Positions 2,102 to 47,400 of a stretch of 64,000 nucleotides of DNA are shown one piece after another. The first letter of the stretch is position 1. Every line of letters starts with the position of its first letter. This stretch comes from Pirellulales bacterium. GTDB taxonomy: Bacteria; Planctomycetota; Planctomycetia; Pirellulales; JAICIG01. The translations under genes and the position numbers were made by a program. Location of the stretch: positions 771 through 64,770 of the forward strand of contig JBBDYJ010000037.1 in the NCBI GenBank assembly GCA_040901675.1. Direction: 5' to 3'. The notes under the pieces were generated by a model that worked only from the letters and a program-made list of their open reading frames with translations, made no database searches and was not told the origin of the DNA.

Positions 2102-2557
2102 ATGGATCGAGTGGTTTGGATATACCTTTCCACCGTGTCGGCCGTTGCCTTTGTGCTCAATTGGGCTTGGGAAATGGCGCAGATGCCCGGCTACGCGGAG
2201 ATGGCCGGGCGGCCATGGAGTGAGACGCTTTGGCGCTGCACCATGGCCGCGGGCGGGGATGTTGCCGTCACGCTAGGGGTGTATGGCGTCGGCGCGATGG
2301 CTGCCGGCTGCATGCGGTGGGGGCAACGCGGAAGCTGGAATGCATATGCGGCGGCGGCCGTCATGGGCGCTGTCGCCGCAGCGGCAATTGAATGGCAGGC
2401 GCTCGGGGCCGGCAAGTGGTCTTACAACGATCGCATGCCGATCGTGCCGTTGCTGGACGTCGGCCTCTGGCCTCTGCTCCAGCTCAGCATGCTGATCCCC
2501 ATGGCAATGCTCATGGCGCGCGCTCTGGTGTCGATGAGAGCAAGCGCAAGCCATTGA
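2102..2557 (+). CDS. integral membrane protein, hypothetical
   Basis: Several hydrophobic helices (VVWIYLSTVSAVAFVLNWAW, AVMGAVAAAAI, LWPLLQLSMLIPMAMLMA). Start uncertain (TTG 2051 or ATG 2102). The 3' end overlaps the convergent ATPase gene by 47 nt. Confidence 0.5.
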   Translation: MDRVVWIYLSTVSAVAFVLNWAWEMAQMPGYAEMAGRPWSETLWRCTMAAGGDVAVTLGVYGVGAMAAGCMRWGQRGSWNAYAAAAVMGAVAAAAIEWQALGAGKWSYNDRMPIVPLLDVGLWPLLQLSMLIPMAMLMARALVSMRASASH

Positions 2558-4676
2558 AGATGACCAGCAGCGAGGCCCCCATGTCGGCCGCTATCGCGGC
2601 CCACAGCGACGCCTGGCCCAGGAACGTCAGCGCCACAAAGACGGCCTTCACGGCGAGAGAGGCGAAGATGTTCTGCCGAATCACGGTGAGCGTGCGCTTG
2701 GAATGGTGAACGAGCCAGGCCAGCCGCGAGAGATCGTCGCTCATCAAGGCAATGTCGGCCGTCTCCAGGGCCGCGTCGGTCCCCACGGCCCCCATCACGA
2801 TTCCAAGGCTGGCGCGGGCCATTGCCGGCGCGTCGTTCACGCCGTCGCCCACCATGGCCACGTGCCGGTAACGTCCGACGAGATCCTCGACCGCTCTCAC
2901 CTTGTCTTCGGGGAGCAGTTCCGCGAGCACTTCGTCGACGCCCGCCTGCCGTCCGATCGCTTCGCCGGTGCCTCGATTGTCGCCGGTGAGCATCACGATG
3001 TGCTCGATGCCGGCCTGCCGCAGGTCGGCAACAGCGCGGGCGGCGTTGGCACGAATCCGATCTCCAACGGCGATCAGCCCGCAGACGTGCTCGTCGTTGC
3101 CGACAACGACGACGCTCATACCTGATGCGGCCACTTTCTCCAGCCGCTCGTGCATCTCGGGCGTTTCCTGGCCGCGCTCTTCCAACTGCCGGTGCGAGCC
3201 GATCCATACGGCTTGTCCCTTCCATTGCGCAGTGGCCCCCTTCCCCTTAATCGCCTGAAAACCGTCGGCCGCAGCGGGGCGGATGCCCTGGGCGTCGGCG
3301 CGGCGAACGATCGCCTGGGCCAGCGGGTGCTCCGACCTTAGCTCGATGGCAGCCGCGATTTCAAGCACCTCGCGCTCGTTGTGGCCCGAAAGCGGAATGA
3401 CCTCCTGGACTTCCGGATGACCTTCCGTGAGCGTGCCGGTTTTATCCATCGCGACGGCCGCCAGGCGGGCGGGCAGCTCGACGTACGGCCCGCCCTTGAT
3501 GAGAACTCCGTGCCTCGCGGCCGACGCCAGCGCGGACACAATGCTCACGGGCGTTGAGATCACTAGCGCGCAGGGACACGCGATCACCAGCAGCACGAGA
3601 CCTTGATAGAACCACTGTGACCAAGAGCCGCCGAAAAGCAACGGAGGCAAGGCCATGACGGCGATGGCCAGGAACATGACCGCCGGTGTGTAGTATCGAG
3701 CAAATTTTTCGACCCACTGCTCGCTGGGCGACCGCCTGCTCTGTGCATCGCCGACCATCCTGATGATCCGGGATAGCGTGGTGTCCTCGGCCGGCCGGGT
3801 GGTGACGAACTCGACGGCGCCGTCCTGGTTGATGGTGCCGGCGAAGACCTCGCTGCCGGGCGACTTTGGCACGGGCAGCGACTCGCCCGTAATCGGAGCC
3901 TGGTTGACGGTCGTTTCTCCCTGGACAATCTTGCCGTCCAGGGGGAACTTGTCGCCCGGCTTCACGACAACCATCGCCCCAACGGGCACGGCATGGGCAT
4001 TCAGCAACTCCTCTCGCCCATCGGCACGCAGCACGCGGGCCGTTTCAGGAGTCAACGTCATCAAGGCCGCGATGGCACGTCGAGCGCGCCCCACGCTCCA
4101 AGCCTCCAGTGCCAACGATACGGCAAACAGGAAAGCGACGGTGGCCGCCTCCAAGACTTCGCCGATCAGGACGGCGCCCGCGACGGCGACCATCATCAGC
4201 AGGTTCATGTCCGGCCGCAGCCGGACCAGGGCCCGCCAGGCTTTGGGCGCCACGAACCACGCGCCGGCAATCGTCGCGCCCGCGTACAGCAGTCGCGCCA
4301 AGAGCGGCATCGGCGCCTGGCTGCCGCCGATGGCCGGACCCCACCCCCCGGCCAGGATGTGGAGCAGGAACCCCGCCGCGATGAGGACTCCGCTGCCGGT
4401 CGTGGTCAACGTCCGGCCCCACCTCGCCCAGCCCGCGGCCTGGGCCAGCCCCTGCCTGAAATCCTCCCAAGGCAGGGCCCGCATGCCGGTCCGGGCCACC
4501 GCGGCCGCGATATCTTCGGCCGTGACCGTATTCTCAGCGAAGACAACGGTCATTTTGGCGTTAAGGACATCGAAAGCGAGATCCTCGACGCCAGGCATCG
4601 GGCCAAGCTGCGCCTTGAGCGCGGCGACTTCCTCCGCGCAGTCCAGTCCGCGAATCTTGTAGGTGGCGGTTGCCAT
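2511..4676 (-). CDS. heavy-metal translocating P1B-type ATPase (Zn/Cd/Pb-type, CPC motif)
   Basis: Diagnostic motifs: DKTGTLT phosphorylation site, CPC in the TM6 context (VIACPCALVISTP), SEHPLA, GDGVNDAPA, and an N-terminal HMA-like domain (YKIRGLDCAEEVAALK). I place the start at ATG 4676 (MATATYKIRG). The longer track ORF to 4811 is the alternate frame of the upstream gene's His-rich tail. Confidence 0.95.
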   Translation of the reverse strand: MATATYKIRGLDCAEEVAALKAQLGPMPGVEDLAFDVLNAKMTVVFAENTVTAEDIAAAVARTGMRALPWEDFRQGLAQAAGWARWGRTLTTTGSGVLIAAGFLLHILAGGWGPAIGGSQAPMPLLARLLYAGATIAGAWFVAPKAWRALVRLRPDMNLLMMVAVAGAVLIGEVLEAATVAFLFAVSLALEAWSVGRARRAIAALMTLTPETARVLRADGREELLNAHAVPVGAMVVVKPGDKFPLDGKIVQGETTVNQAPITGESLPVPKSPGSEVFAGTINQDGAVEFVTTRPAEDTTLSRIIRMVGDAQSRRSPSEQWVEKFARYYTPAVMFLAIAVMALPPLLFGGSWSQWFYQGLVLLVIACPCALVISTPVSIVSALASAARHGVLIKGGPYVELPARLAAVAMDKTGTLTEGHPEVQEVIPLSGHNEREVLEIAAAIELRSEHPLAQAIVRRADAQGIRPAAADGFQAIKGKGATAQWKGQAVWIGSHRQLEERGQETPEMHERLEKVAASGMSVVVVGNDEHVCGLIAVGDRIRANAARAVADLRQAGIEHIVMLTGDNRGTGEAIGRQAGVDEVLAELLPEDKVRAVEDLVGRYRHVAMVGDGVNDAPAMARASLGIVMGAVGTDAALETADIALMSDDLSRLAWLVHHSKRTLTVIRQNIFASLAVKAVFVALTFLGQASLWAAIAADMGASLLVIFNGLRLLSSTPERAP

Positions 4677-4719
4677 GGTCAGCGTTGGGCTGCACCCCCG
4701 CAATTGGCTGAACGCCGAT

Positions 4720-5328
4720 CTAGTGATCGTCCTCGTGGTCATCATGGTCGTCGCCATGCTCATGGTCATGCTCGTCGCCATGGTCATGGTCATGCTCGTC
4801 GCCGTGATCATGATCGTGATCGTGCTCGTTTGAGGCCGTGTACGGCTTGCCCTCGATCGTGACCACGAGCCGCGGGTCGGCGCCTTCGCGATCCAGATCC
4901 TCGCCCAGCTCTTGGTCCTCGCTTACAAAGCGGGACGACCGGCCCGGAGGATCATCGGCATCGGGAGAAGCAGTGAGCTTGAACTGCTCCGGTTTGCCGC
5001 CGTGCTTGAGGTTAATCGTCAGCTCCGGGGCCTCAATGGGAACCAGCTTTTCAGCCGCCGCGTCCAGCAGGTAGACGGTCACCGTTCCCGCCGACTCGTC
5101 ATGAACAATCTCGGCGTGGTACTGTTCGTTACCAAGCTCGACGAGCTGGCCGCCGTGCGGCCCCTGGGAGGGATGTTCATGCTCGCCGGCCGGGGCTTGA
5201 TAGGCTGGGGCCGCGGTCCGAGGCTGCTCTTCGGTCGACGAACGGTTGCAACCGGCCAACGGGAACACTACCAGGGCCGCCGCGGCAAAAACCTTCGCAG
5301 AGTGGATTCTCACGGAAACAAGACGCAT
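4720..5328 (-). CDS. lipoprotein with C-terminal His/Asp-rich metal-binding tail
   Basis: AAGGAG SD 6 nt before ATG 5328. Lipobox (VFPLAGC). The C-terminus is NEHDHDHDHGDEHDHDHGDEHDHEHGDDHDDHEDDH. Lies 43 nt upstream of the ATPase on the same strand. Confidence 0.75.
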   Translation of the reverse strand: MRLVSVRIHSAKVFAAAALVVFPLAGCNRSSTEEQPRTAAPAYQAPAGEHEHPSQGPHGGQLVELGNEQYHAEIVHDESAGTVTVYLLDAAAEKLVPIEAPELTINLKHGGKPEQFKLTASPDADDPPGRSSRFVSEDQELGEDLDREGADPRLVVTIEGKPYTASNEHDHDHDHGDEHDHDHGDEHDHEHGDDHDDHEDDH

Positions 5329-7722: not shown

Positions 7723-7840
7723 TCCTCAAAGGATGACGCGGCCTTGGAAAAGCCCCCGCCTGCGCTCCTTCTATTGTAATTCGCGGTTTCGCCACGTGCG
7801 CCATTGGACGTGCAATTCCGCCGGTCGATGAGGCAACGGT

Positions 7841-7864
7841 CCGAATTCTGGCGAATTCGGCTAC
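7841..7864. repeat. palindromic intergenic repeat, family A (CCGAATTCTGGCGAATTCGGCTAC)
   Basis: Perfect 8-bp arms CCGAATTC/GAATTCGG around loop TGGC. Related copies at 11334-11458, 16103-16129, 30441-30662 and 59902-59927. Confidence 0.8.
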
Positions 7865-7965
7865 CAGCCGTCCAAACCTTGTCAGGCGGCGGCCTTGCGG
7901 GATACCATGAACCGGCCAGCCAGCACGATCCGCCTGACTCACTCCTCGTTTCGCGAGATCAGCCG

Positions 7966-9789
7966 ATGCAATATGCCACCCAACGCCCGCGACGAGGGCT
8001 CGCCGCGACGCTGGGCGTCTGCCTGTACCTGGCCGCCGCGATATCTGCGCTAGTGCCAATGGCAGCCAGGGCCGAGTCGCCGGACCGTTCGCCCGTCGAC
8101 CTGGTGCTGTCGTCCGACGAGCGCTGGCTGATCACGGCCAACCAGACATCGAACTCCGTCTCGCTCGTCGACGTGCCCGCCGCTAAGGTCGTCCAGGAGC
8201 TCGAGGTCGGCCGCCGTCCCGGCGGCCTGGCGCTCACACCGGATGGCAGACGGGTGCTCGTGGCCTGCACTCATTCGGGCACTCTCGATGTGCTGGAACT
8301 GGCCGATGGCAGGCTGAGCGGTGCCGGATCGGTCCGGGTGGGTTTCGAACCGGTGGGCGTCGCCGTTGCGGCGGATGGCCGTTTGGCCTACGTGGCGCTG
8401 CAGGCGGCCGCGGCGGTGGCCGTGGTGGATCTCGAAGCGCTTGCAGTGATTGACCAGATCGACGTGGGGCGCTGGCCGCGGCACCTGGCGTTGTCTTCCG
8501 ACGGCAGCCGCCTGGCGGTGGGCACCAGCGGCGACCAGAGCATCTCGGTAGTCGACACGCATTCCCGCCGTCTGCTGTACCAGGAGAAGTTCGGCGGCAT
8601 CAACGTGGGCCACCTCGTGCCCTCCAGCGACGGCAAGTACGCCTACTTTCCCTGGATGATCTACCGCACCAATCCGATTACCCAGCGAAACATCCAACTA
8701 GGCTGGGTGCTGGGAACGCGCATCGCCAGGGTGCGGCTGGATGGGGCGGCCCGCCGGCAGGCGATGACCCTGGACCCGCGCGGCGAGGCGGTCAGCGATC
8801 CCTACGGGATCGCACTCACCAGCGACGAGCAGTGGCTGGTCGCCTCGGCGTCGGGGACGCACGAGCTGCTGGTCTACCGGATGAAAGACCTGGTGTTTCA
8901 GGACCATGGGGGACCGGGGGACCACATCGATCCTCTGCTGTTGGGCAATCCGGACAGGTTCTACCGCGTGCCCTTGGGCGGGCGGCCGATGGGCATCCGC
9001 TTGGCGCGCGACGATCGCCGCGTCTTCGTGGCCAACTACCTTGCCAGCGCCGTGCAGGTTGTGGATCTCGAATCCCGCAGCGTCGTCCAGACGTTCGATC
9101 TCGGCGGTCCGGCACAGCCATCGTTGGCCCGCCGCGGCCAGGCAATCTTCTACGACGGGGGCCGCAGCCTGGACCAATGGTATAGCTGCCATAGCTGCCA
9201 TTACGAGGGTGGCACCAACGCCGTGGCGATGGATACCAGCAACGACGGATCGGACGGCACGTTCAAGACCGCGCTCCCCCTGTCCAACCTGCGGCACACG
9301 GGTCCGTGGACCTGGCATGGGTGGCAGACTGATCTCGAAGCAGCCATGCACAAGAGCTTGACCGAAACCATGCTCGGCCCGCGGCCCACGGGCGACGACG
9401 TGCAGGCGCTGTTGGCGTTTATCGATTCGATCGAGCCGCCGCCCAATCCCTATCGCGGCCAGGACGGCAATCTGAGCGAAGCGGCCCAGCGTGGCAAACA
9501 AGTCTTCGAGAGCGCCAAGGCGGCCTGCTCAACGTGCCATAGCGGGCCGCACTTCACCGATGGTCAGATCCACGACGTCGGGCTGGGCCGCCCCCGCGAC
9601 GTCTACGAGGGCTTCAACACGCCGTCGCTGAACGGCCTGTATGGCCGCGTCCGCTACTTGCACGATGGCCGGGCCAAGAGCCTGGAGCAGTTGTTGACCG
9701 GTCCGCATAATCCCGCCGACGTGGCCGGCCTCGGCGAGCTCGGCGACAGCGAGCGGTCCGACTTGATTGAATATCTGAAGTCGCTCTAA
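7966..9789 (+). CDS. beta-propeller repeat protein fused to a di-haem cytochrome c (peroxidase/MauG-like) domain
   Basis: Start at ATG 7966 (MQYATQRPRRGLAATLGVCLYLAAAISALVPMAARA signal). Repeated propeller-like segments (ITANQTSNSVSLVD, VACTHSGTLDVL, YVALQAAAAVAVVD, VGTSGDQSISVVD). Two haem c motifs, CHSCH and CSTCH, in the C-terminal third. Confidence 0.85.
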   Translation: MQYATQRPRRGLAATLGVCLYLAAAISALVPMAARAESPDRSPVDLVLSSDERWLITANQTSNSVSLVDVPAAKVVQELEVGRRPGGLALTPDGRRVLVACTHSGTLDVLELADGRLSGAGSVRVGFEPVGVAVAADGRLAYVALQAAAAVAVVDLEALAVIDQIDVGRWPRHLALSSDGSRLAVGTSGDQSISVVDTHSRRLLYQEKFGGINVGHLVPSSDGKYAYFPWMIYRTNPITQRNIQLGWVLGTRIARVRLDGAARRQAMTLDPRGEAVSDPYGIALTSDEQWLVASASGTHELLVYRMKDLVFQDHGGPGDHIDPLLLGNPDRFYRVPLGGRPMGIRLARDDRRVFVANYLASAVQVVDLESRSVVQTFDLGGPAQPSLARRGQAIFYDGGRSLDQWYSCHSCHYEGGTNAVAMDTSNDGSDGTFKTALPLSNLRHTGPWTWHGWQTDLEAAMHKSLTETMLGPRPTGDDVQALLAFIDSIEPPPNPYRGQDGNLSEAAQRGKQVFESAKAACSTCHSGPHFTDGQIHDVGLGRPRDVYEGFNTPSLNGLYGRVRYLHDGRAKSLEQLLTGPHNPADVAGLGELGDSERSDLIEYLKSL

Positions 9790-9821
9790 TCTGGGCTCGA
9801 AAAGTGCGGGCGGAGGTCTGC

Positions 9822-10451
9822 ATGGAGAATGAAATGAAACGCTCGTTGCTGCTGCTCTCGGTGCTGGTCCTGTTGTTGCCGGGCTGCGAACGGTCCAAGA
9901 CCGTGCCCAACGTGCCCGACGCCGGCCAAAGCGAGGCAGCCAAGGCCGGTCCGGCGGCTGACGCGGGCACGCTGCCCCCGGCCAACGACGCAGTGACCCT
10001 GCAGATCAAGGATTACGACGGCATCCTGGCCCTGGTCCGCGACAAGCAGGGCAAGGTGGTCGTGCTGGACGCCTGGAGCACCTGGTGCGAGCCGTGTATG
10101 AGGGAATTCCCGGGCCTGGTCGCGTTGCACGAGAAGTACGGGCCCGACCGGGTCGCGTGCATCAGCTTGAGCTTGGACTTCGACGGCATCGGCGACGAGA
10201 AGCCCGAGCAGCACCGCGACAAGGTGCTCGCATTTCTCAACGAGCAAGGTGCCGCGTTCGACAATCTCATTTCCAGCGACCCCTCGGAGGAGCTCTACAA
10301 AAAGCTCGGCTTCGCCAGCGTGCCGGCGGTTTTCGTCTACGACCGGCAAGGCCAGTTGGCCAGGCGGTTCGATAACACGGACGCCAAGCGCGAGCCGTTT
10401 ACCTACCAGGATGTCGAGGCGCTGGTGGTCGAGTTGCTCGAGGCTCAATAG
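9822..10451 (+). CDS. TlpA/ResA-like thiol:disulfide oxidoreductase lipoprotein
   Basis: GGAGG 5 nt before ATG 9822. Lipobox LLLPGC. Thioredoxin active site WSTWCEPC. Confidence 0.85.
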   Translation: MENEMKRSLLLLSVLVLLLPGCERSKTVPNVPDAGQSEAAKAGPAADAGTLPPANDAVTLQIKDYDGILALVRDKQGKVVVLDAWSTWCEPCMREFPGLVALHEKYGPDRVACISLSLDFDGIGDEKPEQHRDKVLAFLNEQGAAFDNLISSDPSEELYKKLGFASVPAVFVYDRQGQLARRFDNTDAKREPFTYQDVEALVVELLEAQ

Positions 10452-10601: not shown

Positions 10602-11180
10602 TTATTCCTCCAGGATCTTGGGTACGTCGGCCAGGATGGCCTCCTCGCCTTTCTCCTTCTTCAGTTCGCCAGGGCCAAAGGCGTGGTTGGCCTTGACCTT
10701 GAGCCCGCTGTAGAGCATCACGCTCACTTCAGCATCGGGGCTGATGCCAAAGTTCTCGGGGCCGTTCTCGAATTCGACCGGGACCACGATCGGGGTGTGC
10801 TTGGCTTCGCTCTTTTTGGCAAGCTCCTTGGCTTGCTCTTCGAGAGCGTCCTGGTCCTCACCCAGCAGATTGACGAAGACACGCAATTCCTTGTCTTCGT
10901 GCTTTGCCACGAGCGCGTCGAGCTTCTTGACCAAACTGGCCAAGGCCGCGTCTGATTTTCGGGCGAAAATCATGACGACGGGTCGAGCACTGTACTTTCA
11001 GCGATAGCAGAGTCTCTGGCCCTCGCGGACGCCGTCGTCCTCGGCGCCGGCAATTTTTAATACGTCAAAGGCACCGACCGCGGCATCGACGTCGAGGCCG
11101 CTCTTCAGTTCATCGGCGCCTGCGGTCGTGGCGCCGGCCACCAAGGCCGCCGCCAGACCGAAGCTTGGGAGTAATCTCAT
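10602..11180 (-). CDS. secreted C-x-x-U protein: candidate selenoprotein (192 aa if TGA 10998-11000 is read as Sec); otherwise a nonsense-disrupted gene
   Basis: Track ORFs 10998..11180 and 10602..10973 are in the same frame, separated by TGA plus 8 sense codons: ...EGQRLCYR-TGA-KYSARPVV-MIFARKSD... AAGGAG SD about 12 nt before ATG 11180. Signal peptide MRLLPSFGLAAALVAGATTAGA. No SD before the internal ATG 10973. The TGA lies 3 residues after the only Cys in the protein. Confidence 0.55.
10946..10981 (-). promoter_or_regulatory. candidate bacterial SECIS stem-loop
   Basis: On the mRNA: CGUC-A-UGAUUUUC [GCCC] GAAAAUCA-GACG (10977..10949), 12 bp with a bulged A. Extendable by 3 bp with a bulged U to 10981/10946. 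The stem starts 19 nt after the UGA and the G-first tetraloop lies about 33 nt after it. Confidence 0.4.
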
Positions 11181-11333
11181 AATGGCAGGAATCTCCTTTC
11201 TCGGTTTTCCAGTGAAACGTCACACTCGCACGCATTCGACTGGCTGTAGTCTATGGAGGAGGCCCCCGTTTGGCAAGTTTCCCCCGACTGGGTTTCCAGG
11301 AAGCGGAAGCCTCCCGACTTTTGGGGAGGGTGA

Positions 11334-11474: not shown

Positions 11475-13220
11475 CTACGGGCTTGGCGCATCAGCCTCGA
11501 TCAATAACTCGAACCCCAGCATCGAGGGCTCGGTGGTCAGGCGGAGGCCGGCCTTGTTCACCGCCTTGATGAGCTGAAGGAGCGTGGCGATGGCCTGCTC
11601 GGCCTCGCCGCGGTCGTTCCCCTGGGCAAGCATGTTCTGACTGATCAACAGCTCGCGATTGTCGTCCAGAATGGCGGCGAGCGGGGCAGCCTGCAGGGCC
11701 AGCTCGAAGTTGCCGGAATCCACCGCGGACCCTCCGCTGCCTAGGACGTCGACTAGCTGCTTGACGATGCCGATGGTGGAGCCGAACACGAAGCGGTCGC
11801 CGACGCGCGCGCAGGCCGGACTGAAGTTGTAGTTGAGGGGCGCTTTGCCCGGCTCTGCCTTTTGCGGCGCAAGGTAGCTGGCCGTGGAAATGCTCGCTCC
11901 CTGGTACTCTTCGCTGGCCAACAGCAACTGTGGCTGCCCCTGCTGCCCGCCGACAATGTTCGTCAGCCCGATCACCTTCTGATAAGCAATCAGCAGATGC
12001 TTGGCAAAATCGTCCGGTTGCTCCATCGTGAGGACCAGGGCCATGGCCGGCAGCTTGAGGGCCGGCACCGGCTGATCGCGGAACTCCTGGCGGACCACGA
12101 TGAATTGCCAACCGGGCTTTAACTCACCAAGCACCTCGGAGCCAAAATCACGCCCGGAGAAGAACAATCCCAATTGCGTGTCGGCCTGGGCGAAGCCGGC
12201 CACGGTCTGCTCGTCGAACAAATCGCCCCGCGACAACCAGAATCCGGCCAGGTCGCGGACCAGCGACAGCGTGGCAATCGTGCCGGGCAACTCGACTCCG
12301 GCGGGGACGCCTTCGGCCTCGGCAAAGTACCACGAGCGGGCAGGGGCGACTTGGGCAGCGTCGCGCGGCATATAAGCCCGCAGACGAAGCGTGCCGCCGT
12401 CCAGGTGCAGGCTGGCGGCGGCATACGGGGCGTGGCGGGCCGCTTCGAGCACGCCGCCCAGCAGCAGCTCGCCCAGCGGATTGTTGTTGGGGCTTGAGAG
12501 CGCCTTCTCGACATTGGGCAGCTTGCGGATGGTGTCGAGCCCGGCCCAGGCCCAAGCCGCGGCCTCGGCGGGACGCGCCGCACGGGCCTCGGCAAAGGCG
12601 GGCACGTTGGCCAGGCTCGGCGAACCGGCCTGCCGCGAGCGGTCGATGGCCGCCTTGAGCGCGTCGGCGTTGTTGCTGCTCACGAGCAGGTCGCCGATGA
12701 TGGCATGGAACTGGTTTGGACCGAAGCTCCATCCCACCACGCCGTTGTATTCCTTCGACTTCACGGGCGACTCACGCGCGTTGTTGCGTGCGTCGGCTTC
12801 GATGAGGTCGGCCAGGGTCTTGTTGAGCCTGTTGAGCAATTCGGGATTTGTGCTGCGGCTGATCCAAAGGGCCGAATTGCCGGCCGGATCAAAGGCCAGA
12901 TACACCCCCCCGCCGAGCACGTCGCTGACCGCGGTCCGCCAGTCGGTCCCCAACTGGGCCTCGACCAGCGCGGTGCCCGCACGGGCCTGCCGGTACTGGT
13001 CCGAATCGAGGTATTGCTTGTAGGCCGGGATCCCCTGGGCCAACTCGTAGGTCGAGGGCGCCAGGGCCGGCCCGAGCAAAGCGTCCGGTCGCGTCACTTC
13101 CAGGTACAATATCGACGACTCGGGCGCCAGCCGCGCCGGGTCCGCCACCTCGCCGCGGCAAACAGGCAGTCCAGTGCCGAAAACGGCCAACACAAGCAAG
13201 CCGAGAAGGGGCTTTTTCAT
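11475..13220 (-). CDS. large secreted protein, hypothetical
   Basis: 581-aa ORF with a clear signal peptide (MKKPLLGLLVLAVFGTGLPVCRG) and coding-like composition. No motif I can assign. Confidence 0.7.
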   Translation of the reverse strand: MKKPLLGLLVLAVFGTGLPVCRGEVADPARLAPESSILYLEVTRPDALLGPALAPSTYELAQGIPAYKQYLDSDQYRQARAGTALVEAQLGTDWRTAVSDVLGGGVYLAFDPAGNSALWISRSTNPELLNRLNKTLADLIEADARNNARESPVKSKEYNGVVGWSFGPNQFHAIIGDLLVSSNNADALKAAIDRSRQAGSPSLANVPAFAEARAARPAEAAAWAWAGLDTIRKLPNVEKALSSPNNNPLGELLLGGVLEAARHAPYAAASLHLDGGTLRLRAYMPRDAAQVAPARSWYFAEAEGVPAGVELPGTIATLSLVRDLAGFWLSRGDLFDEQTVAGFAQADTQLGLFFSGRDFGSEVLGELKPGWQFIVVRQEFRDQPVPALKLPAMALVLTMEQPDDFAKHLLIAYQKVIGLTNIVGGQQGQPQLLLASEEYQGASISTASYLAPQKAEPGKAPLNYNFSPACARVGDRFVFGSTIGIVKQLVDVLGSGGSAVDSGNFELALQAAPLAAILDDNRELLISQNMLAQGNDRGEAEQAIATLLQLIKAVNKAGLRLTTEPSMLGFELLIEADAPSP

Positions 13221-17006: not shown

Positions 17007-18275
17007 TCAGGTCAGCTCGAAATCGACCGAGTGTACGCCGTGCCAGCCGTAGCCGGCGGGGTTCCAGCCGATGGCGCCGTCGAGCGGCTGGCCGCGGCCT
17101 TGAGCATCGATGGCCCGGGCCAGCAGGCGTTGTTTGCCGCGAGGCAGCGTCAGCGTAGTCCGCCAATGATACCAGGCATAGGGGCTGGCGGGCGCTTTCA
17201 GCTCGGTCCGCCGCCACGTGCCAGCGCCGTCGGTTGAGACCTCGACCGACACGATCCGGGCCGCACCGTCGTTGAAGGCGACTCCGCGGACGTCGACCGC
17301 GCCGGCGGCGAGCCGCTCGCCTTCCAAGGGGGCGAAGACGACGCTCTTGATCGGCATCCGCCAGTTGGGCTCGCTGTTGGCCAGGCCGTACTCGAACGGG
17401 CTGCCCGGGGCGATGGGCACGAGCGGAGTGCGGTAGCGCCGCACCTGGTGATGGTTGTGCGTCTCGCGGGCCTCGAACCGGAGCCGGTGCAGCCATTTGA
17501 TGTTCATCGTTCCGTAGTAGCCGGGCGTCACGAGGCGGACTGGGCCGCCGTGGACCGCGGGCAACGCTTCGCCGTTCATGGTGATGGCCAGTAAGGAGCG
17601 GCCGAGGGCGTCGGGCAGGGGGATGCTGTGCTCGAAGTCGGCGCCCTGCGGGTCGGACGCACCATCCTTGCCCTCGGCGGTGAGGAATCTGGCCTCGGGG
17701 TCCACGTTCAAGCCGAGTGCGTCGACGATCGTTTGCAGCCGCACCCCGCCGAAGCGGACATTGCCCATCGCTCCGTGCTGCCATTGGCTTCCCTTGGCGG
17801 GCGCCGAGCGTGAAAACAGGGCCCGGCCATTGCCGGAGCACTGCAGCACCATCTCGACCTCGACCTGCTCCATGCGGGCCAGGTCGGCGGCGCTGAACGT
17901 CCGCGGGCTGGCGGCCAGACCAGCCAACTGGACCGTCCAGCCGGCGGAGCCGGCGGGCTCGGTGGTCCGCGTGTCCGGCAGTTCCTGGTTGTTGCGGACG
18001 AAGAGCACGGTCTTCGGAGTGAGATCGTGCTTGCGCAACCAGGCCAGCGGAGTTTCCAGCTCGACGGTCTTGGTGTTGTGGACAACCAGCCGGCGGTCCT
18101 TACCGGCCACGATTTCACCCGCGCCGCCCTCGCCCGGCTCGGCGGCAAGCGGACCTCTGCCATCCAGCATCGCGGCGGCCACCAGGCCCGCCGCCGCTCG
18201 CTTGAGGAGCGTGCGCCGCTCGAGCGGTTCAGCTTCCCTCTTACCGGTCAGCCATTCAATTGCGTGATCAGCCAT
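17007..18275 (-). CDS. Tat-exported molybdopterin oxidoreductase, sulfite oxidase/SorA-like
   Basis: Start at ATG 18275 (GGAGAAAG upstream). Tat signal LERRTLLKRAAAGLVAAAML. Moco cysteine context VLQCSGNGRALF. C-terminal dimerisation-like domain. The track ORF extension to 18485 is not supported. Confidence 0.8.
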   Translation of the reverse strand: MADHAIEWLTGKREAEPLERRTLLKRAAAGLVAAAMLDGRGPLAAEPGEGGAGEIVAGKDRRLVVHNTKTVELETPLAWLRKHDLTPKTVLFVRNNQELPDTRTTEPAGSAGWTVQLAGLAASPRTFSAADLARMEQVEVEMVLQCSGNGRALFSRSAPAKGSQWQHGAMGNVRFGGVRLQTIVDALGLNVDPEARFLTAEGKDGASDPQGADFEHSIPLPDALGRSLLAITMNGEALPAVHGGPVRLVTPGYYGTMNIKWLHRLRFEARETHNHHQVRRYRTPLVPIAPGSPFEYGLANSEPNWRMPIKSVVFAPLEGERLAAGAVDVRGVAFNDGAARIVSVEVSTDGAGTWRRTELKAPASPYAWYHWRTTLTLPRGKQRLLARAIDAQGRGQPLDGAIGWNPAGYGWHGVHSVDFELT

Positions 18276-18399
18276 CGCGGGAACTTCTTTCTCCAATCGG
18301 GCGCGGCGAGCCCCTGCGTTCGAGTATCGCACTGGCAAGCCAGGCCGGCAGCCGGAGCGCGTCGACAGCCGGAGCGGGCGGGAACTACTGACGAGAGAG

Positions 18400-19146
18400 T
18401 CAAGGCGCTCCTTTAGATGGTCTAATCGGTTCGGCTTGATGCCGGGTCCCCTGTTGTTGCTCCAGCTCACCCACAAGCCTTTCAAGCTGATCCCTTCCCG
18501 GACCTTCGTACCGCGCTGCGACCTCCTTCAAAAGGTTAGCGTCTTCCGCTCCATCAACGTTGTGTAACTCGCGGTACCAAGCCGTTACCGTACCTTCTTT
18601 GAGCGGCAGATAGGTCCAGCGGCCGTCCTTGAGGATGCACAGTGTATTGCGTCTCGCAGACACTCGCGTGGAATAAGGCGAGCCGTCCATCAGGACCGCA
18701 GTTGACGGACTCGCGCCTCGTATGGGATAGATCATCCCGTGGTAGCGCGCGCTACGGTCCCCCGACACAATAACAACCAACATGTTCAGACTAAAGTCCG
18801 GGAATCCAGAGGTCCCCCTCCGATCACACAGTGGTCGGATTGTTCGCCATACGGGCAGTGGTTCAAAATCAGCATGCGACCCGTAATCTTCGTGAAAAAG
18901 CGGCCGCCTCAAAGCCAAAGAGCCAAGCGCCGCTGCAATGCAAATCAGCGTCATTGCCGGCACGGCTATGCTTAGGCGATAGCAACCTAATAATCCTGGA
19001 CCAGCGCGGCACAACCGGGAGATGGTCCATGAAGCACCCCCAACGAAATGGCGGTACGCCACGACGGCTATACTCCGCATACTCTTCGGTCCCATTTTCA
19101 CCTCCGCGCTAAGGCCGCACGACTTGTACCAATGTGTACTCCGCAC
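18400..19146 (-). CDS. hypothetical protein in a lower-GC segment (start uncertain; ATG 19080 or 18954 also possible)
   Basis: Only long ORF in the region. One hydrophobic segment (MTLICIAAALGSLAL). Two 60-nt samples give about 55% GC against a mid-60s background. No recognisable motif. Confidence 0.35.
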   Translation of the reverse strand: MRSTHWYKSCGLSAEVKMGPKSMRSIAVVAYRHFVGGASWTISRLCRAGPGLLGCYRLSIAVPAMTLICIAAALGSLALRRPLFHEDYGSHADFEPLPVWRTIRPLCDRRGTSGFPDFSLNMLVVIVSGDRSARYHGMIYPIRGASPSTAVLMDGSPYSTRVSARRNTLCILKDGRWTYLPLKEGTVTAWYRELHNVDGAEDANLLKEVAARYEGPGRDQLERLVGELEQQQGTRHQAEPIRPSKGAP

Positions 19147-19162
19147 GTAGCCCTATTATTAT

Positions 19163-20404
19163 CTAAGGATTGCTGTTCGCAGCCCAGCGGAGCTTGTCCC
19201 AGTCGAGCGGACGACGGCAATCGAGGCGCGGGATGTCGGAGCGCATAGCCTCGGGGTATTTTTGCGCGGCACCCGTGTTGAAGATGACGACGTGTTCATC
19301 GGCTCCGATCCAGCCCTCTCGCGACAGCTTTTCCAGGGCGCCGACGCAGGCGGCTGTTTCCGGGCAAATTGAAATGCCTTCCAGGCCGCAGGCCAAGCGC
19401 ATCCACTCGGCGATACGCCCTTCCTCGACCGCGACGGCGGTGCCGCCGCTGGCGCGGAGCGCGTCGAGGATCATGAAATCCCCGATGGCCGAGGGCACGC
19501 GGATGCCGCTGGCCACCGTGGCGGCGCCGGCAAACGATTCGGCAAACCGCTGGCCGGCCTCGAAGGCGCGCACGATCGGCGGGCAGCCGTCGGACTGCAC
19601 GGCCACCATCCGAGGCCGCCGCTCGCCGGCCAGCCAGCCCAACTGGGCCAACTCGTCGAACGCCTTCCACATGCCGATCAAGCCGGTGCCGCCTCCCGTG
19701 GGGTAGAGGATCACGTCGGGCAGCCGCCAATCGAGCTGCTCGGCCAGCTCCAAGCCCATCGTCTTCTTGCCCTCGATGCGATAGGGCTCCTTGAGCGTCG
19801 ACAGGTCGAACCACGCGAGCGGCTCCTTTCCCTCGGCCACGATCCGGCCGCAATCGGTGATCAGGCCGTTGACCAGAAAGGTGCGCGCGCCGGCCAGCAG
19901 GCACTCGAGCTGGTTGATCGAGGGCGTGTCGTCGGGCATGAAGACGTAGGCTTCCATGCCGGCCCTGGCCGCGTAAGCCGCCATCGCCCCGCCGGCATTG
20001 CCCGCGGTGGGGATCGCCAGCCGGCGGATGCCAAAATGCCTGGCCATGCTGACGGCCATCGCCAGGCCGCGGCTCTTGAAGCTGCCGGTGGGCAGGCGCG
20101 ACTCGTCCTTGATCGAGACGTGCCGCAAGTTCGAGTGGGCGGCCAGCCGCGGGCAGTCGACCAGCGGCGTGATCCCTTCGCCCAGTGAGACGGCGGCGGC
20201 TTCATCCGGAACCGGCAACAGCTCTCGATATCGCCACATCGTGGAAGGCCTGCCGGCGAGCGTGCCCTTGGTCAAGACGCGCCCGACGGCTTGCAAATCG
20301 TAGCGGACCCAGAGCGGCCGGCCGTTGTGCAGCGTCTGCACGCGACCGGCATCGAGCGGCGTGCCGTCCAAGGCGCTTTCGAGGTGCGTGACGAATGAGG
20401 GCAT
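19163..20404 (-). CDS. thrC: threonine synthase
   Basis: PLP-lysine motif GSFKSRGLAMAVS, glycine-rich PLP loop YPTGGGTG, and length and overall pattern of the ThrC family. Confidence 0.88.
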   Translation of the reverse strand: MPSFVTHLESALDGTPLDAGRVQTLHNGRPLWVRYDLQAVGRVLTKGTLAGRPSTMWRYRELLPVPDEAAAVSLGEGITPLVDCPRLAAHSNLRHVSIKDESRLPTGSFKSRGLAMAVSMARHFGIRRLAIPTAGNAGGAMAAYAARAGMEAYVFMPDDTPSINQLECLLAGARTFLVNGLITDCGRIVAEGKEPLAWFDLSTLKEPYRIEGKKTMGLELAEQLDWRLPDVILYPTGGGTGLIGMWKAFDELAQLGWLAGERRPRMVAVQSDGCPPIVRAFEAGQRFAESFAGAATVASGIRVPSAIGDFMILDALRASGGTAVAVEEGRIAEWMRLACGLEGISICPETAACVGALEKLSREGWIGADEHVVIFNTGAAQKYPEAMRSDIPRLDCRRPLDWDKLRWAANSNP

Positions 20405-37582: not shown

Positions 37583-38197
37583 ATGTGTGCCGCCGCCCAG
37601 GTGGACCCGGAGCAGCTTTTGAAGCTGGCTCGGGCCGGCTCGGACGACGCTCTGGGGCAGCTCATGGAGCTGTATCGCAACTATTTGGGCCTGATGGTCC
37701 GGCTGCAGATCGGCCGCCGTCTGCAGGGGAAGGTGGACGAGGCGGACCTGGTGCAGGAGACGTTCCTGGAAGCGCACCGTCATTTCAGACAGTTCCGGGG
37801 CGCGAGCGAAAGTGAATTGGTGAGCTGGCTGCGGCAAATCCTGGCCGCCAAACTGGCCAACCTGGTCCGCCGCTATTGCGGCACACAGCGCCGCGACGTG
37901 CGGCTGGAACAGGAACTGGCCGCCGAGCTGGACCAATCGTCGCAAGCGATGGATCGGGGGCTGGTGGCCAATCAGAGCTCGCCCAGCCAGCAGGCCGCCC
38001 GGCGGGAGCAGGCGGTGCGGCTGGCCGATGCGCTCAAGGAGCTGCCGGAGGCATATCGAGAAGTGATCATCCTCTCTCACTTGGAAGGTCTGAGCTTTCC
38101 CGAGGTGGCCAGCCGCATGGGGCGTACCGTGGATAGCGTGAAGAATCTTTGGGCCCGGGCCCTGGCCCGGCTGCGCCGCTCGCTGGGAGACCCCTGA
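37583..38197 (+). CDS. ECF-type RNA polymerase sigma-70 factor (Ser/Thr-kinase-associated type)
   Basis: AAAGGGAAGG before ATG 37583. Region 2 (DLVQETFLEAHRHFRQF) and region 4 (REVIILSHLEGLSFPEVASRMGRTVDSVKNLWARAL). The stop overlaps the kinase start (TGATG). Confidence 0.9.
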   Translation: MCAAAQVDPEQLLKLARAGSDDALGQLMELYRNYLGLMVRLQIGRRLQGKVDEADLVQETFLEAHRHFRQFRGASESELVSWLRQILAAKLANLVRRYCGTQRRDVRLEQELAAELDQSSQAMDRGLVANQSSPSQQAARREQAVRLADALKELPEAYREVIILSHLEGLSFPEVASRMGRTVDSVKNLWARALARLRRSLGDP

Positions 38198-41430: not shown

Positions 41431-44400
41431 ATGGCGCGTACCAAGCGCTCGAGGACTAGAACTCAACGGCCGCGCGGACCATTGCCTTGCACCGGCAACC
41501 GCTGTTTCGGGCGTCTGCGGGGCGAGTGGCTCGAGCCGCGCTGGCTCTTGGCACTCGATACCGTCTACATTTGCGAGACGTTGCAGGAGGCGTTCACCGA
41601 GTTCGAAACGCACAGCGGCACGCTGGCGGGTTTGGTGGATCCCAATGCCAGTTCCAATAGCCCCCTGGCCAACGGCCTGCCGCTGATTTCGGACGCCGAC
41701 TGGGACACGGCCGTGGACCTGGTGTCGGCGCTGGCTTCAGTCGACTTTCCCACGCTCAATTGCGGCGGACTGAGCACGGCCGACGTCAAGCAGGAACTGG
41801 AAAGCCATGGCTTTACTGTTTCGTTCATCATCTCGGATGCCGAGCTGGCGCAGGTCGACGCGGGTGACGGGACTAACCTGATCACGGTCAGCAAGCCCCA
41901 TCAGTTCAACAACTTGTTGGACCCCAGCGGGTTGGACGTCGCCCAAGACCTGGGCATCAGCTCCATCCCGGCGGGCGCCATCAGCGGCGCGCTCGATGGC
42001 GACGTCGCACTGGCGCTCGACTTGACCGTTGGAGCCACGTCCAGCGGAGCCTACTTCGGGCCTGAAAGTAACCTGGCACTCGACGTCGACGTGGCCGGCA
42101 GTCTCGCCGCCAATATTCCCCAGCTCAACGTTGCCGCCCAAGGTGCGTTGGACTTTGTCTCCGCGGTTTCATTTTCCGGGTCCGACACCGACGCCGACGG
42201 AAAGGTGACCTCCGCCGAGCTGTCAGCGGGCATCGGCAGCTTGCCGCTCGATTTGCTAGGGACGGCTGCGCTCGATGTCGACGGCGAACTGGCGCAGTTC
42301 GATGTCCAGGTTCAAGGCGATTTCCAATGGGCATTGGACAATGCCGGCGCGCAGCTCAATCGGACTGATTTTTCGCTTGGAAACGCCACGTTCTTTAGCG
42401 GCCAGGTGGCCGTCAGCAACGTCACCGGCACTTACGACGGCAGCCTGGCCACTATTGAATCGGGCACGGTCCAGCTCGATCCGGCCGTCTTCGGCCCGAA
42501 TGCCAGCGCCTCGTTATCCGAGCCGATCGTGCTCGATGCGGACAGCGTGCAGTCAGGGGCCGCTCTGTTCAGCAATTTCGATCTGCCGCAGGTAGGCGGT
42601 TTTCAGGCCACTATCGACTCGGCCCTGCTGTCCTTCAGTGCCCAGAGCGACTTCGAGCTGGCCGAAGTGGCCGGGCACGTGCTCGCTCATGGAGTGGTCA
42701 TCGATTTTGGAGGCGTGATTCAATCGAACGGCGATTTTGCTCTGGCCGCCGACGTCGCTGGGTTTGATTTGGGTTCCGTCACGGTCCAGCTTTCCGGCAA
42801 CATCAGCCGCACCGCCGGCGAGATTGATTTTGCTCTCACCGCCGATCTGGCGGGTGAATTGATTGCGGGGCTCGTCATCGAAGAACTCTCGCCCGGTGAG
42901 CCATCCCACGTCAATCTCACGGCAGCCGGCGGCCTCGTGCTGGACGCCCGGGCCGAGGCGTTTGGAGTGAACCTGCTGCTGGCTGGCGACGTCGATCCCA
43001 CGGGCGACTTTTCCGTGGATGCCACGGCTGACAGCTTCGAGCTGGGCGACTTGGACGTGGACCTGGTCGGCACGCTGACGCGCCTAGCAGGCGTGATCGA
43101 CTATTCGCTTGCTGCCGAGATTGCCGGCACGCTGGTCGCCGGTCTGGTGATTGAAGAGCTTTCCCCGGGGCAGCCGTCGCTGGTCACGTTGACCAAGGAT
43201 GACGGTCTGGAGTTGGACGCGCGGGCCGAGGCGTTCGGCGTCAAGCTGCTGCTGGCCGGCGACATCCATCCCACGGGCGATTTTTCCGTGGACGCCACGG
43301 CCGACAGCATCGAGCTGGGCGCTTTGGAAGTGGACTTGGTCGGCACGCTGACCCGCGTTGCGGGGGTGATCGATTACTCGTTGGCTGCCGAGATTGCCGG
43401 CACGCTGGTCGCCGGCCTCGTGATTGAAGAGCTTTCCCCTGGGCAGCCGTCGCTGGTCACGCTGACCAGGGACGACGGTCTGGAACTGGACGCACGGGCC
43501 GAGGCGTTTGGCGTCAAGCTGCTGCTGGCCGGCGACATCCATCCCACGGGCGACTTTGCGCTGGATGTCACTGCCGACAGCTTCGAGTTGGGCGACTTGG
43601 ACGTGGACCTGGTCGGCACGCTGACCCGCATCGCGGGCGTGATCGATTACTCGCTGGCTGCCGAGATTGCCGGCACGCTGGTCGCCGGGTTGGTGATTGA
43701 AGAACTTTCTCCGGGTCAGCCGTCGCTGGTCACGCTCACCAGGGAGGATGGTCTGGAACTGGACGCTCGGGCCGAGGCGTTTGGCGTGAAGCTGCTACTG
43801 GCGGGAGCGATTCATCCCACAGGCGACTTTGCGCTGGACGTCACTGCCGACAGCTTCGAGCTGGGCGACTTGGACGTCGACCTGGTCGGCACGCTGACCC
43901 GCATCGCGGGGGTGATCGATTACTCGTTGGCTGCCGAGATCGCCGGCACGCTGGTCGCCGGGTTGGTGATTGAAGAACTTTCTCCGGGCCAGCCGTCGCT
44001 GGTCACACTCACCAAGGACGACGGCCTGGAGCTGGACGCACGGGCCGAGGCGTTTGGGGTGAAGCTGCTGCTGTCCGGCGATGTCCACCCCACGGGCGAC
44101 TTTTCCGTGGACGCCACGGCCGACGGTTTTGAGCTGGGCGACTTGGACGTGGACCTGGTCGGCACGCTGACCCGCATCGCGGGCGTGATCGATTACTCGC
44201 TGGCAGCCCAGATTGCCGGCACGCTGGTGACCGGGCTGGACATCGTGGAGTTGGCCCCGGGGCAGCCGTCGCTGGTCACGCTCACCAAGGACGACGGTCT
44301 GGAACTGGACGCGCGGGCCGAGGCGTTCGGTGTGGACCTGTTGCTTTCGGGCACAATCAATGCCGCCGCAGACTTTTCCATCGTGGCTACGGCGGATGGG

Positions 44401-47400
44401 TTCAGCTTGGGCGATTTGGATGTTGACCTCGTCGGCACGCTGACCCGCATTGCGGGCGTGATCGATTACTCGCTGGCAGCCGAGATTGCCGGCACGCTGG
44501 TCGCCGGGCTGGAAATCATCGATCTCGCGCCAGGGCAACCCTCGAACGTCACCCTGACCAAGGCCGATGGTTTGAACCTGGACGCTCGGGCCGATGCGTT
44601 CGGGGTGAACTTTGTGCTTTCGGGCGCGCTGGACGTCAGCGGCGATTTCTCACTGGCGGTGACGGCCGAACCGTTCGAGCTCGGCGGCCTGACCATTGTG
44701 CTGGCCGGCCAGATTACCGGTGTCTCTGGAGTGCTCGACTATGCGCTCGAAGGAGACGTGTCCGGCGAGCTCTTGCCCGGCCTGACGATCGTCGAGCTTT
44801 CGCCCGGGGTGCCATCGTCTGTCTCGCTGACCAAGGGCGACGGGCTGACGCTTGATGGCCGCGCCGAGGCATTCGGGTTGGATCTCAACATCGACGGCCA
44901 GTTCCACGCAACCGGCAACTTCAATCTGTTGGTGTCCACCGACCCGTTCGATATTCCCGGCGCGGCTGGCAACGTCATCCTGGCGGGCAGCATCTTCCGC
45001 AACGCGGCAGGCTTGGACTGGCTGCTCACGGCGGAGGTGAGCGGCTGGGAGCCGGCGCCGTTCCTCAACGTGCCGCTGCTGGAGGTTCGGCTGGGCGTAG
45101 CGGGCCTCGAATTCGACGCCGTAGCCGATATCGGCGACCTGGAGGACGTGCACCTGTTCGGCGACTACGAGTTCGATTCCGCGACGTTTGCACTGGCCGC
45201 GGCCGCGCCGCTCGAAGATCCCTGGGAGCCGGTGGCCGAAGTGGAATTGACCGGCGTGCTGTTCACGGTCACCAATCGCGACGCCAATGGACTTCAGACC
45301 GGCGTCACCGCCTGCGCCACCGCCGACCTCGCGCTGTTCGGCAGCGGTTTTACCGTGGCCGCCTGCGTGACGCCACGCGGCACGTGGCTGGTGGCCACGC
45401 CCGAAGGGCCGTCGTTCGAGCCGGTGCCGGGCCTTTCGCTGGACGATCTGCACCTGGTCGTCAGCACGTACGACTTCGGCGACTTCGATCTTGCCTTCGA
45501 CCTCGACACGCTGGGTGAAGTGTCCAGGCCGTCCGGCGGATTGACCGGACGGCTGCGCGACATCAGTTTTGGCATCAACCTGGTGGCGACGAGCTTCTTG
45601 CCGGATGGCATCCCCGGCATCGGCGGCAGCGAAGTCCAGATTGGAGGCGTGATCGGCAGCAGCCTGCCCGATATGCTGATCGAAGCCCTCATCGTTCTGG
45701 ACCAGCCCTGGGTGCTGGCCGACGTGATCCAGATCGATTTGCTGGGTCTGCGGATCAGCGGCCAGCCGTCGCTGACCATCTTCGGCGATGGGCGGATCCT
45801 GCACGACCAGATTCCCGGTCTGGACGAGGATATTCTCGTCCGTGCCGCGCTGTCGCTGACCACCACCGAGCTGAACGGCTCGCTCTCGTTGCTGGCGCCG
45901 GTCCACGACGTGTTCGGCGTGGAGGGCTTGAACATCATCGAGGCCGACGTACAAGTCGGCATCAGCTTCGTGGCCACCCCTGTGCCGCCCCCCACCGTGG
46001 GCTTCAACTTCCTGGTCGAGACGCCCGAGATCGCCCAGGACCTGCTGAGCGTGCCGGCCACGCTGGGCGCGTCGCTCAAGGTGAGCAACATCGAGCCGAT
46101 CTTTGCCATGACGGTCATCGATTGGGTTCCCTACGGCAACCTGGGGCTCACGCAGTTCGTGGTGAACGAGGGCACGCTGGTCGTGGCGCCCAATGGCGGC
46201 ACGATCGGCACCAAGACGTTCGATCGTGGCTTCAGCGCCTCCTTCGACATCGACATCTTCGGCACCAACGTGGCCTTCCTGGGCGTCTTCGACGAAGACA
46301 CCCAGGGCATCGTCATGGAGGGCTTTGTATCAGCCTTCGAGGTGGCGGGTATCGGCATCACCGGCGAAGGCCCGGATGGCATCTTTGAGGACGGCGTGGT
46401 TTCCAGCCCAACGGATGCCGATGCCGATAATGCGGTTGTCTTTCGGGCGGCCCTGACGGCCGCGGCGCCCCAGAACAACGGCCTGGCGTTTTCCGGCCGG
46501 ATCGACCTGCCGGGCGAGGACGAAGCGGGCAATCCGGCCTTCATCGCGCTCTCCGGAGAGTTCGACAGCCTGGGAGTCGTGATCCAGGGGGAGATCCAGA
46601 ACTGGGCGATCGTTCCCTCAGTGATTCTGATCGATGAGGCGACCTTCACGCTGGCTATCCTCCTGGAGAATCCGGACCAGAACCTGGTCGCATTCACAGC
46701 CGACCTGGACTTGCTGGGCACGCACATCGTGGCGGCCGGCAGCCTCAGCGGCCAGGGACTCGCCCTGGCCGGCTCGCTGGAGCCCGGCAACCAGCGGTTT
46801 GCCGGAGTGCGCGTCGAACAATTTGGATTTTCGTTCAGCACACTGCCCGCCGATGAGCACCTGCGGGTCAACTTCCAGGTCGACTTGCCGGGGGCTGGCG
46901 GGCTGGTCAGCGTGGTGGGCGGCTTTGAGGACCAGACGCTGCTCCTGGATGCAAACATCAGCAACTGGCAGCCCATCCCCACGATGGTGTTTGCCGGCAG
47001 CCTGCACGCCGAAGCCGACCTGGCTGCCAGTTCGCTGGAATTGGACTTCGACGTCACCGGCAACGTGCTGGGCACTTCCACCCATTTCGTCGGCTCGATT
47101 TTTGCCGATCCCAGCGGGCTGACGCTGTACGCGACTGCAACCGTCGGGTTGAAGTTTCCCGGCGGGCTGAAGGTGGCGGACCTGGTCGCCACGATTGACC
47201 TGGGATACACGTCGCCGTTTTTCATTTCGCTGGCGGCCGACTTCCGCCTGCCCGGCACGCGGCCCGCCGACGTGCTGCTGCTGGGTGGCATCGGCACCAG
47301 CGGTGTCACGCTGGCGGGCAGCATCGATCGCTGGGGCCTGGTGCCGGGCCTCTTTTTCGACGGCGAACTGGAAGTCGAGGCGGATTTCCAGGCCACCTCG

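Follow-up and report, generated by a model that had tools for sequence, protein, structure and literature searches.

A candidate selenoprotein gene with a Cys-Tyr-Arg-Sec motif in a Pirellulales bacterium and its relatives among the Planctomycetia

An interrupted reading frame and its homologues

The gene examined here lies on the minus strand at positions 10602..11180 of a 64,000-nucleotide stretch of DNA from a Pirellulales bacterium (assembly GCA_040901675.1, contig JBBDYJ010000037.1), hereafter called the window, and very probably encodes a genuine selenoprotein in which an in-frame UGA is read as selenocysteine (Sec), as judged from comparative sequence analysis. A mechanical listing of open reading frames (ORFs) reports the gene as two pieces, one of 60 aa (10998-11180) and one of 123 aa (10602-10973). 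Translation confirmed the proposal of the initial annotation that both ORFs share one frame and are separated only by a TGA and 8 sense codons. The joined frame comprises 192 codons and ends with a TAA stop at 10602-10604, its single internal stop being the TGA at 10998-11000 (...DDGVREGQRLCYR*KYSARPVVMIFARKSD...), which would encode Sec61. Around this codon the frame reads GQRLCYR*KYSARPVVMIFARK, that is, C-Y-R-TGA, the TGA following three codons after the TGC of Cys58 (11007..11009, minus strand). As had been noted at the outset, Cys58 is the sole cysteine of the 192-residue product and forms the first residue of the C-Y-R-U motif.

The upstream piece carries the features of a gene start that the initial annotation had described. 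A putative Shine-Dalgarno-like AAGGAG, read from the sequence, is located at 11193..11198 (minus strand), 12 nt 5' of the ATG at 11180, and residues 1-22, MRLLPSFGLAAALVAGATTAGA (11115..11180, minus strand), form a predicted signal peptide with a predicted cleavage site after AGA, followed by DE. The n/h/c-region pattern is apparent in the sequence, and a hydrophobic N-terminus ending in an AxA-like site immediately ahead of ELKSG is common to the homologues. This signal-peptide-like N-terminus suggests that the protein is probably exported. The internal ATG chosen by gene callers to open the 123-aa ORF (Met70; 10971..10973, minus strand) is not preceded by a Shine-Dalgarno sequence and is buried in the stem of the hairpin described below, again as previously stated. 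An equivalent of Met70 is found in homologues that carry cysteine at the TGA position (Cys forms), and two of the TGA forms (L010 and L051) have GTA (Val) there, a codon that does not serve as a start; Met70 is a structural methionine, not a start codon. The region 10602-11180 is almost certainly one gene rather than two.

A search with the joined sequence, U being replaced by C, found 209 proteins, all recorded as 'hypothetical', none with a Pfam domain, and with named sources that are all metagenome-assembled genomes (MAGs) of Pirellulales or Planctomycetales. Two length classes were distinguished. Members of the class of about 190 aa, which covers 99% of the query, contain L-C-Y-R-C in every case, with the second cysteine at the TGA column without exception, and C58, Y59, R60 and C61 are invariant in an alignment of 84 sequences. 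The initial annotation had stated that planctomycete homologues carry CYRC followed by RP.V.(I/V)F.R, and the alignment bore this out. The closest relatives of the C-terminal part of the window protein (65-93% identity) were all called at about 121 aa and begin with M(I/V)F(A/S)RK, the signature of gene calls truncated by a TGA.

The DNA of the relatives, drawn from GTDB species-representative genomes (32 loci) and metagenomes (50 loci), was translated upstream of each match. Of 81 related Pirellulales/Planctomycetia loci, 40 have a TGA in precise alignment with the Cys codon, and the other 41 have TGC or TGT. The 40 TGA loci represent 29 unique 75-nt regions and 35 unique longer regions; they come from independent assemblies, and the identity of their proteins goes down to about 45-55%. 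Recurrence of both the TGA and the hairpin in so many independent loci goes far beyond chance. Ahead of the TGA and in frame with it, the signal peptide and the motifs LKSG...GAF.V.K..G..DGV..G..LCY(R/V) are conserved, and coding-type conservation is also seen in the 8 codons that separate the TGA from the ATG. Pairwise divergence at third codon positions is about twice that at positions 1 and 2 on either side of the TGA (0.45 vs 0.26 and 0.19 upstream; 0.53 vs 0.33 and 0.20 downstream), which indicates that both parts are translated in this frame.

All TGA forms fall within one deep clade of a neighbour-joining tree, with a depth equal to that of the whole Cys clade. This Sec clade has a single origin from a CxxC ancestor and has long been retained, often beside a Cys paralogue in the same genome. 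Both TGA and TGC copies occur on different contigs in four MAGs (L002/L017, L003/L019, L004/L016 and L009/L024); the MAGs are SMAG_U14055, U14026, U11258 and JTS-RE139. One Cys form, L073, is nested within the TGA clade. This locus (2195-2581) is a TGT form that encodes the same PVVMIFARKSD peptide with other codons and has no hairpin, and it looks like a natural Sec-to-Cys reversion accompanied by loss of the Sec insertion sequence (SECIS). L081, a similar Cys form with TGC, was left out of the tree.

A profile search of 1.84 billion representatives (50% clustering) revealed 2,040 proteins at E<=1e-3 and 130 at <=1e-30. Around a dozen of the top 150 matches begin exactly at profile positions 69-71, and these are TGA-truncated calls. 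The Sec forms in NCBI, JGI, ENA and Logan are systematically recorded as hypothetical proteins of 120-129 aa starting with MIFARK or MVFARK, records from which the first 69 residues are missing, and with them the signal peptide and the active-site motif. The joined reading corrects this error; the mis-called forms include P0001, P0064, P0067, P0097, P0104, P0107, P0113, P0115 and P0120. In some members of the family the whole domain occurs as a tandem array of two or three copies (P0121, 557 aa; P0122, 386 aa; P0126, 373 aa; P0139; P0171).

RNA hairpins downstream of the TGA

A candidate SECIS hairpin was located at 10946..10981 (minus strand); its 15-bp stem is interrupted by two 1-nt bulges and capped by a GCCC apical loop (10961-10964). 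The hairpin alone has a folding energy of -17.9 kcal/mol, and the 74 nt from the TGA onwards fold at -24.5 kcal/mol (z = -2.3 vs shuffles). The position given in the initial annotation was correct in part: the 33-nt spacing from the UGA to the loop, the GCCC loop and the single-nucleotide bulges were confirmed, but the stem begins 16 nt 3' of the UGA (12 nt with three extra outer pairs included) rather than 19 nt.

Resemblance of this hairpin to bacterial SECIS (bSECIS) elements had been proposed from its general architecture. The published bSECIS model (PMC13188914) specifies a loop of 3-9 nt, an upper stem of 4-16 bp, a G in the first two loop positions, a distance of 16-37 nt from the UGA, and a minimum free energy of <=-7.5 kcal/mol. 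The window hairpin, with its 4-nt loop, 8-bp upper stem, 33-nt spacing and energy as given above, falls within all of these values, and so do 27 of the 29 unique TGA sequences. The two exceptions lack the loop G alone, and the spacing is always 33 nt.

Among the 29 unique TGA sequences, 95% of cells are paired in the named register, compared with 33-51% after a shift of the 3' arm by 1-3 columns. Double compensatory changes were observed at three stem pairs, together with many one-sided changes that preserve G-U pairing, and the bulge migrates between A31 and U32 depending on the base at column 51. Since classical covariation of this kind is thin, the analysis of synonymous sites provides a sharper test. 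Synonymous diversity, taken as codon diversity within the majority amino acid, was 0.17 in the Sec forms over the codons of the element (+6 to +24) vs 0.43 over the remaining codons of the gene; in the Cys forms the value was 0.44 for either region. CGA, AAA, ATT, TTG and AGT, all rare codons in a genome of 65% G+C, are fixed at paired positions. Variability peaks at the wobble base of the loop codon (+12, GCN; 0.71), and the wobble positions of the stem are fixed. In the two Cys forms L073 and L081, PVVMIFARKSD is encoded using CGC-AAG-TCG; the hairpin is wholly absent from L073, and L081 keeps only a weaker and different fold. The hairpin occurs where the TGA occurs and is under constraint at the RNA level. 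Its conservation with the TGA had been set as a test of the initial proposal, which it passed, the Cys forms being without the hairpin of the Sec forms.

The invariant block continues for about 20 nt past the SECIS stem, into a second predicted hairpin of 8 bp, CUUGGCCA-GUU-UGGUCAAG (about 10926..10944, minus strand; alignment columns 59-78), which alifold places 4 nt beyond that stem. It is paired in 100% of cases, all five variant types keep the pairing, and there is one double compensatory change. Synonymous diversity is zero over the codons concerned (+19 to +24). The GUU loop is about 61 nt from the UGA, beyond the range of the bSECIS model.

Protein fold and explanations for the TGA

The window protein was represented structurally by P0002, a Cys homologue of 60% identity, modelled with AlphaFold2 from an alignment of 91 sequences (mean predicted local distance difference test score, pLDDT, 90.5; predicted template-modelling score 0.84); pLDDT is <50 over residues 1-20. 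A Foldseek comparison with the PDB returned 549 chains at E<=1e-3, all of thioredoxin-superfamily folds, with probability 1.0 and template-modelling (TM) scores of 0.5-0.6. The matches include the deiodinase-2 core (PDB 9h48; E 2e-7, TMq 0.58), Bcp/PrxQ, Prx5/Ahp1, ResA/TlpA/DsbE and Sco, at 9-16% identity. At the sequence level, no match emerged from Pfam-A or NCBIfam r20 at E up to 0.1-1 or from a profile search of the PDB sequences, and hhalign against the adjacent canonical TlpA-like protein gave a probability of 0.7%, that is, no homology. The modelled fold is that of the thioredoxin superfamily, of the peroxiredoxin/TlpA/deiodinase-like kind.

According to DSSP, the modelled elements are strands 40-44 and 56-57, a helix at 59-63 with CYRC (58-61) at its N-terminus, strand 68-73, helix 78-93, strand 100-105, helix 110-124, P130 followed by strand 131-134, strands 152-158 and 161-168, and helix 175-183. 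Their succession in the model matches the TlpA/Prx topology, with the CxxC/U preceding the central strand; the canonical strand-helix junction (74-78) reads R74-K-S-D and contains no cysteine. Together, the CxxU motif and the fold point to a redox pair, and the model suggests that a selenenylsulfide centre with redox activity occupies a non-canonical position.

Several observations weigh against the interpretation of the gene as a selenoprotein, or complicate it. A tblastn search with E. coli SelA, SelB and SelD gave no match in the window and about 390 kb of flanking DNA; as no selA, selB, selD or tRNA-Sec gene was found in this range, the Sec-decoding capacity of this genome is assumed. True double compensatory changes in the SECIS stem are few (the three pairs noted above), owing to the strong conservation of the element. 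In the apical loop, G-C-N-C takes the place of the commoner G-G/U, and the loop G is absent from 2 of the 29 sequences. The CxxU appears, judged by the order of secondary-structure elements, to lie off the canonical active site of the thioredoxin fold, so that its redox mechanism cannot simply be borrowed from TlpA or Prx. Finally, clustering of the flanking ORFs revealed no conserved neighbour across the 81 loci.

Stop-codon read-through can in general be stimulated by downstream hairpins. A near-cognate or suppressor tRNA (Cys or Trp), or a reassigned code, might thus insert an amino acid other than Sec at the UGA, the hairpin merely stimulating the event; the failure to find Sec machinery in the window and its flanks would agree with this. 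With ARAGORN, no tRNA gene was found in the window and no tRNA-Sec in 39 TGA-form loci; the window also gave no Rfam match. Several findings nonetheless make such read-through improbable. TGA is the normal stop of 6 of the 13 other confidently identified window genes and is internal and in frame in none of them, including one of 4088 codons; as the codon otherwise acts as a stop in the window, the recoding is site-specific. The recoded position is exactly the redox cysteine of a CxxC, a hallmark of Cys/Sec pairs, and the geometry of the hairpin is of the SelB type in 27 of 29 sequences. Within the phylum, several Planctomycetes, including two isolates from Porphyra, Gemmata and Isosphaera, possess full selA/B/C/D sets along with predicted selenoproteins (PMC4807772).

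The gene callers' output corresponds to two genes, a 60-aa secreted peptide ending at the TGA and a 123-aa cytoplasmic protein initiated independently at the ATG 9 codons past it. This arrangement is still less probable than read-through without Sec. The Cys forms are single polypeptides continuous across the TGA point, and in the pLDDT 90 model strands 40-44 and 56-57 and the CxxC helix pack with the C-terminal domain, so the fold needs both parts. The 8 codons before the ATG are conserved as coding sequence, and the ATG itself lacks a Shine-Dalgarno sequence, is buried in the stem and is replaced by GTA in two TGA forms. A nonsense mutation (TGC or TGT to TGA) or a sequencing error in this assembly, the alternative named in the initial annotation, would need a single base change from TGC and would agree with the annotation of the 123-aa piece alone in databases, but it is excluded for practical purposes by the recurrence of the TGA in 40 loci (35 unique sequences, independent assemblies, identities down to about 45-55%) with an intact frame and coding-type selection on either side.

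Recoding of the UGA as selenocysteine is the explanation that agrees with these observations, and every refutation test of the initial selenoprotein interpretation that could be run came out in its favour. A wider proposal, that the gene belongs to an undescribed family with a CxxSec at a non-canonical site of the thioredoxin fold (the classical site being lost), a long-kept Sec lineage and a bipartite signal made up of the SECIS and the GUU hairpin, is put forward tentatively, as possible rather than probable.

Mechanism, surroundings and comparison with known systems

We infer the involvement of SelB and tRNA(Sec), as well as the export, redox chemistry and substrate of the protein, along the following lines. 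The UGA at 10998-11000 would be recoded to selenocysteine during translation, with the SelB.GTP.Sec-tRNA(Sec) complex tethered by the hairpin at 10946-10981. Because the apical loop is 33 nt downstream, the hairpin could remain folded at the mRNA entrance of the ribosome while the UGA occupies the A site. When Sec is not delivered, termination would leave a 60-residue fragment. The product would be a mature, probably exported (periplasmic) thioredoxin-fold protein of about 170 residues with Cys58-Tyr-Arg-Sec61, in which the Cys-x-x-Sec pair at the N-terminus of a short helix most likely cycles between the selenol/thiol and selenenylsulfide states. A likely role is that of an extracytoplasmic thiol/selenol oxidoreductase or a peroxide/disulfide reductase, with low confidence in any specific biochemical role.

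The selenoprotein gene is flanked by a convergent gene for a TlpA-like redoxin (9804-10451) and by one for a DUF3352 protein (11475-13220). Beyond the former lies a gene for a 661-aa protein with a beta-propeller (YVTN repeats) and a di-haem MauG/CCP-like domain (7804-9789, plus strand), whose best NCBIfam matches, the hydrazine-synthase beta/gamma subunits, are weak and far below the cut-offs. This protein is a recurrent neighbour in just 7 of the 81 loci, beside Sec and Cys forms alike, and the TlpA-like protein recurs in 2-4. A heavy-metal P-type ATPase with an HMA domain (2511-4811), a sulfite-oxidase-type molybdopterin oxidoreductase (17007-18485) and a pyridoxal-phosphate-dependent, cysteine-synthase-like enzyme (19163-20404), all on the minus strand and within 10 kb, suggest a loose metal/sulfur redox neighbourhood. 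As the neighbourhood is not conserved, it gives no clue to function, and the gene is regarded as a stand-alone unit.

A gene with a transglutaminase core (PF01841; 6754-7722, minus strand) is found at a distance of 3 kb. The Sec-insertion operon of planctomycete P2 also has a transglut_core gene embedded in it (PMC4807772). The resemblance may be a coincidence, the gene not being a conserved neighbour in the other loci. A crude scan of the window for a second selenoprotein, based on an in-frame TGA next to a cysteine, gave only noise, and the candidate 'NW-U-AGC' at 37821-37823 was rejected because it is out of frame inside an ECF-sigma-like gene. Elsewhere, a giant ORF of 4088 aa (41431-53697, plus strand) encodes RTX calcium-binding repeats, cadherin/He_PIG/Rib Ig-like domains, Laminin_B and C-terminal DUF4214 repeats.

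With this gene, the bacterial selenoproteome gains a family from a phylum that is scarcely represented in selenoprotein surveys, and selenium use by soil and peat Pirellulales is indicated. Planctomycetes are unmentioned in deep-Sep (PMC12013277), BSepDB (PMC13326102) and the ISME J survey (PMC5029168). The Sec/Cys pairs within genomes and the one apparent Sec-to-Cys reversion offer natural material for the question of why Sec is kept over Cys. The off-site redox motif and the second hairpin depart modestly, and in ways open to test, from the textbook thioredoxin-fold site and the bSECIS model.

The hairpin resembles the bSECIS of the E. coli fdhF/fdnG type in being an in-ORF element 3' of the Sec-UGA with a small G-first apical loop, and its 33-nt spacing, 7-8-bp upper stem and energy are all within the consensus model. 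It differs in its GCNC loop, which is not G-G/U, and its spacing approaches the maximum of the 16-37 nt allowed. The consensus model has no counterpart of the GUU-loop hairpin that follows 4 nt further 3'.

Known and predicted prokaryotic selenoprotein families have been tabulated with Pfam, NCBIfam, TIGR or CDD identifiers in a 2026 review (PMC13188914). None of the Pfam or NCBIfam models of its Table 1 matched the window protein, families with CDD or PANTHER identifiers alone being outside the direct scan. The bacterial thioredoxin-fold selenoproteins of that table (Prx-like, UGC-containing TlpA, Redoxin-family and thiol-disulfide isomerase-like) share with the window protein a Cys/Sec motif spaced by two residues, many Cys homologues or paralogues, an in-ORF SECIS just 3' of the UGA, the thioredoxin superfamily and an export-type N-terminus. 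The window protein, however, has no match to the Pfam Redoxin, AhpC-TSA or Thioredoxin models or to NCBIfam selenoprotein models. Its motif is CxxU, UxxC being usual in those families, and appears from the order of secondary-structure elements to precede the central beta-strand instead of occupying the canonical strand-helix junction. The iodothyronine deiodinase core and the bacterial deiodinase-like selenoproteins (PF00837) provide the best structural match, being selenoproteins with a Prx-like thioredoxin fold and an RP-hydrophobic-strand-F segment. Identity is 16% and PF00837 itself does not match; the deiodinase Sec is positioned after the central strand, whereas that of the window protein would be about 10 residues upstream of the strand, with R-K-S-D at the canonical site.

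A further parallel is the 'hypothetical' candidate of planctomycete P1 (IMG 2643311185/6; PMC4807772 Table S9), which was likewise called as two ORFs, has a predicted SECIS and no functional annotation, and finds its closest match in a Cys-containing Rhodopirellula protein. It might belong to the same family; no description of the family, its distribution or its fold is given in that paper. No literature was found that pairs CYRC with selenocysteine or deals with a CYRC/CYRU family. Judged from sequence comparison, the window gene very probably represents a previously uncatalogued selenoprotein family, seen so far in Pirellulales and related Planctomycetia. Its mechanism, comprising a Sec-UGA, an in-ORF SECIS, a Cys/Sec pair and a thioredoxin fold, is entirely of a known kind. 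The novelty lies in the family itself, its distribution across a clade, the off-site motif and the companion hairpin, with no new principle involved.

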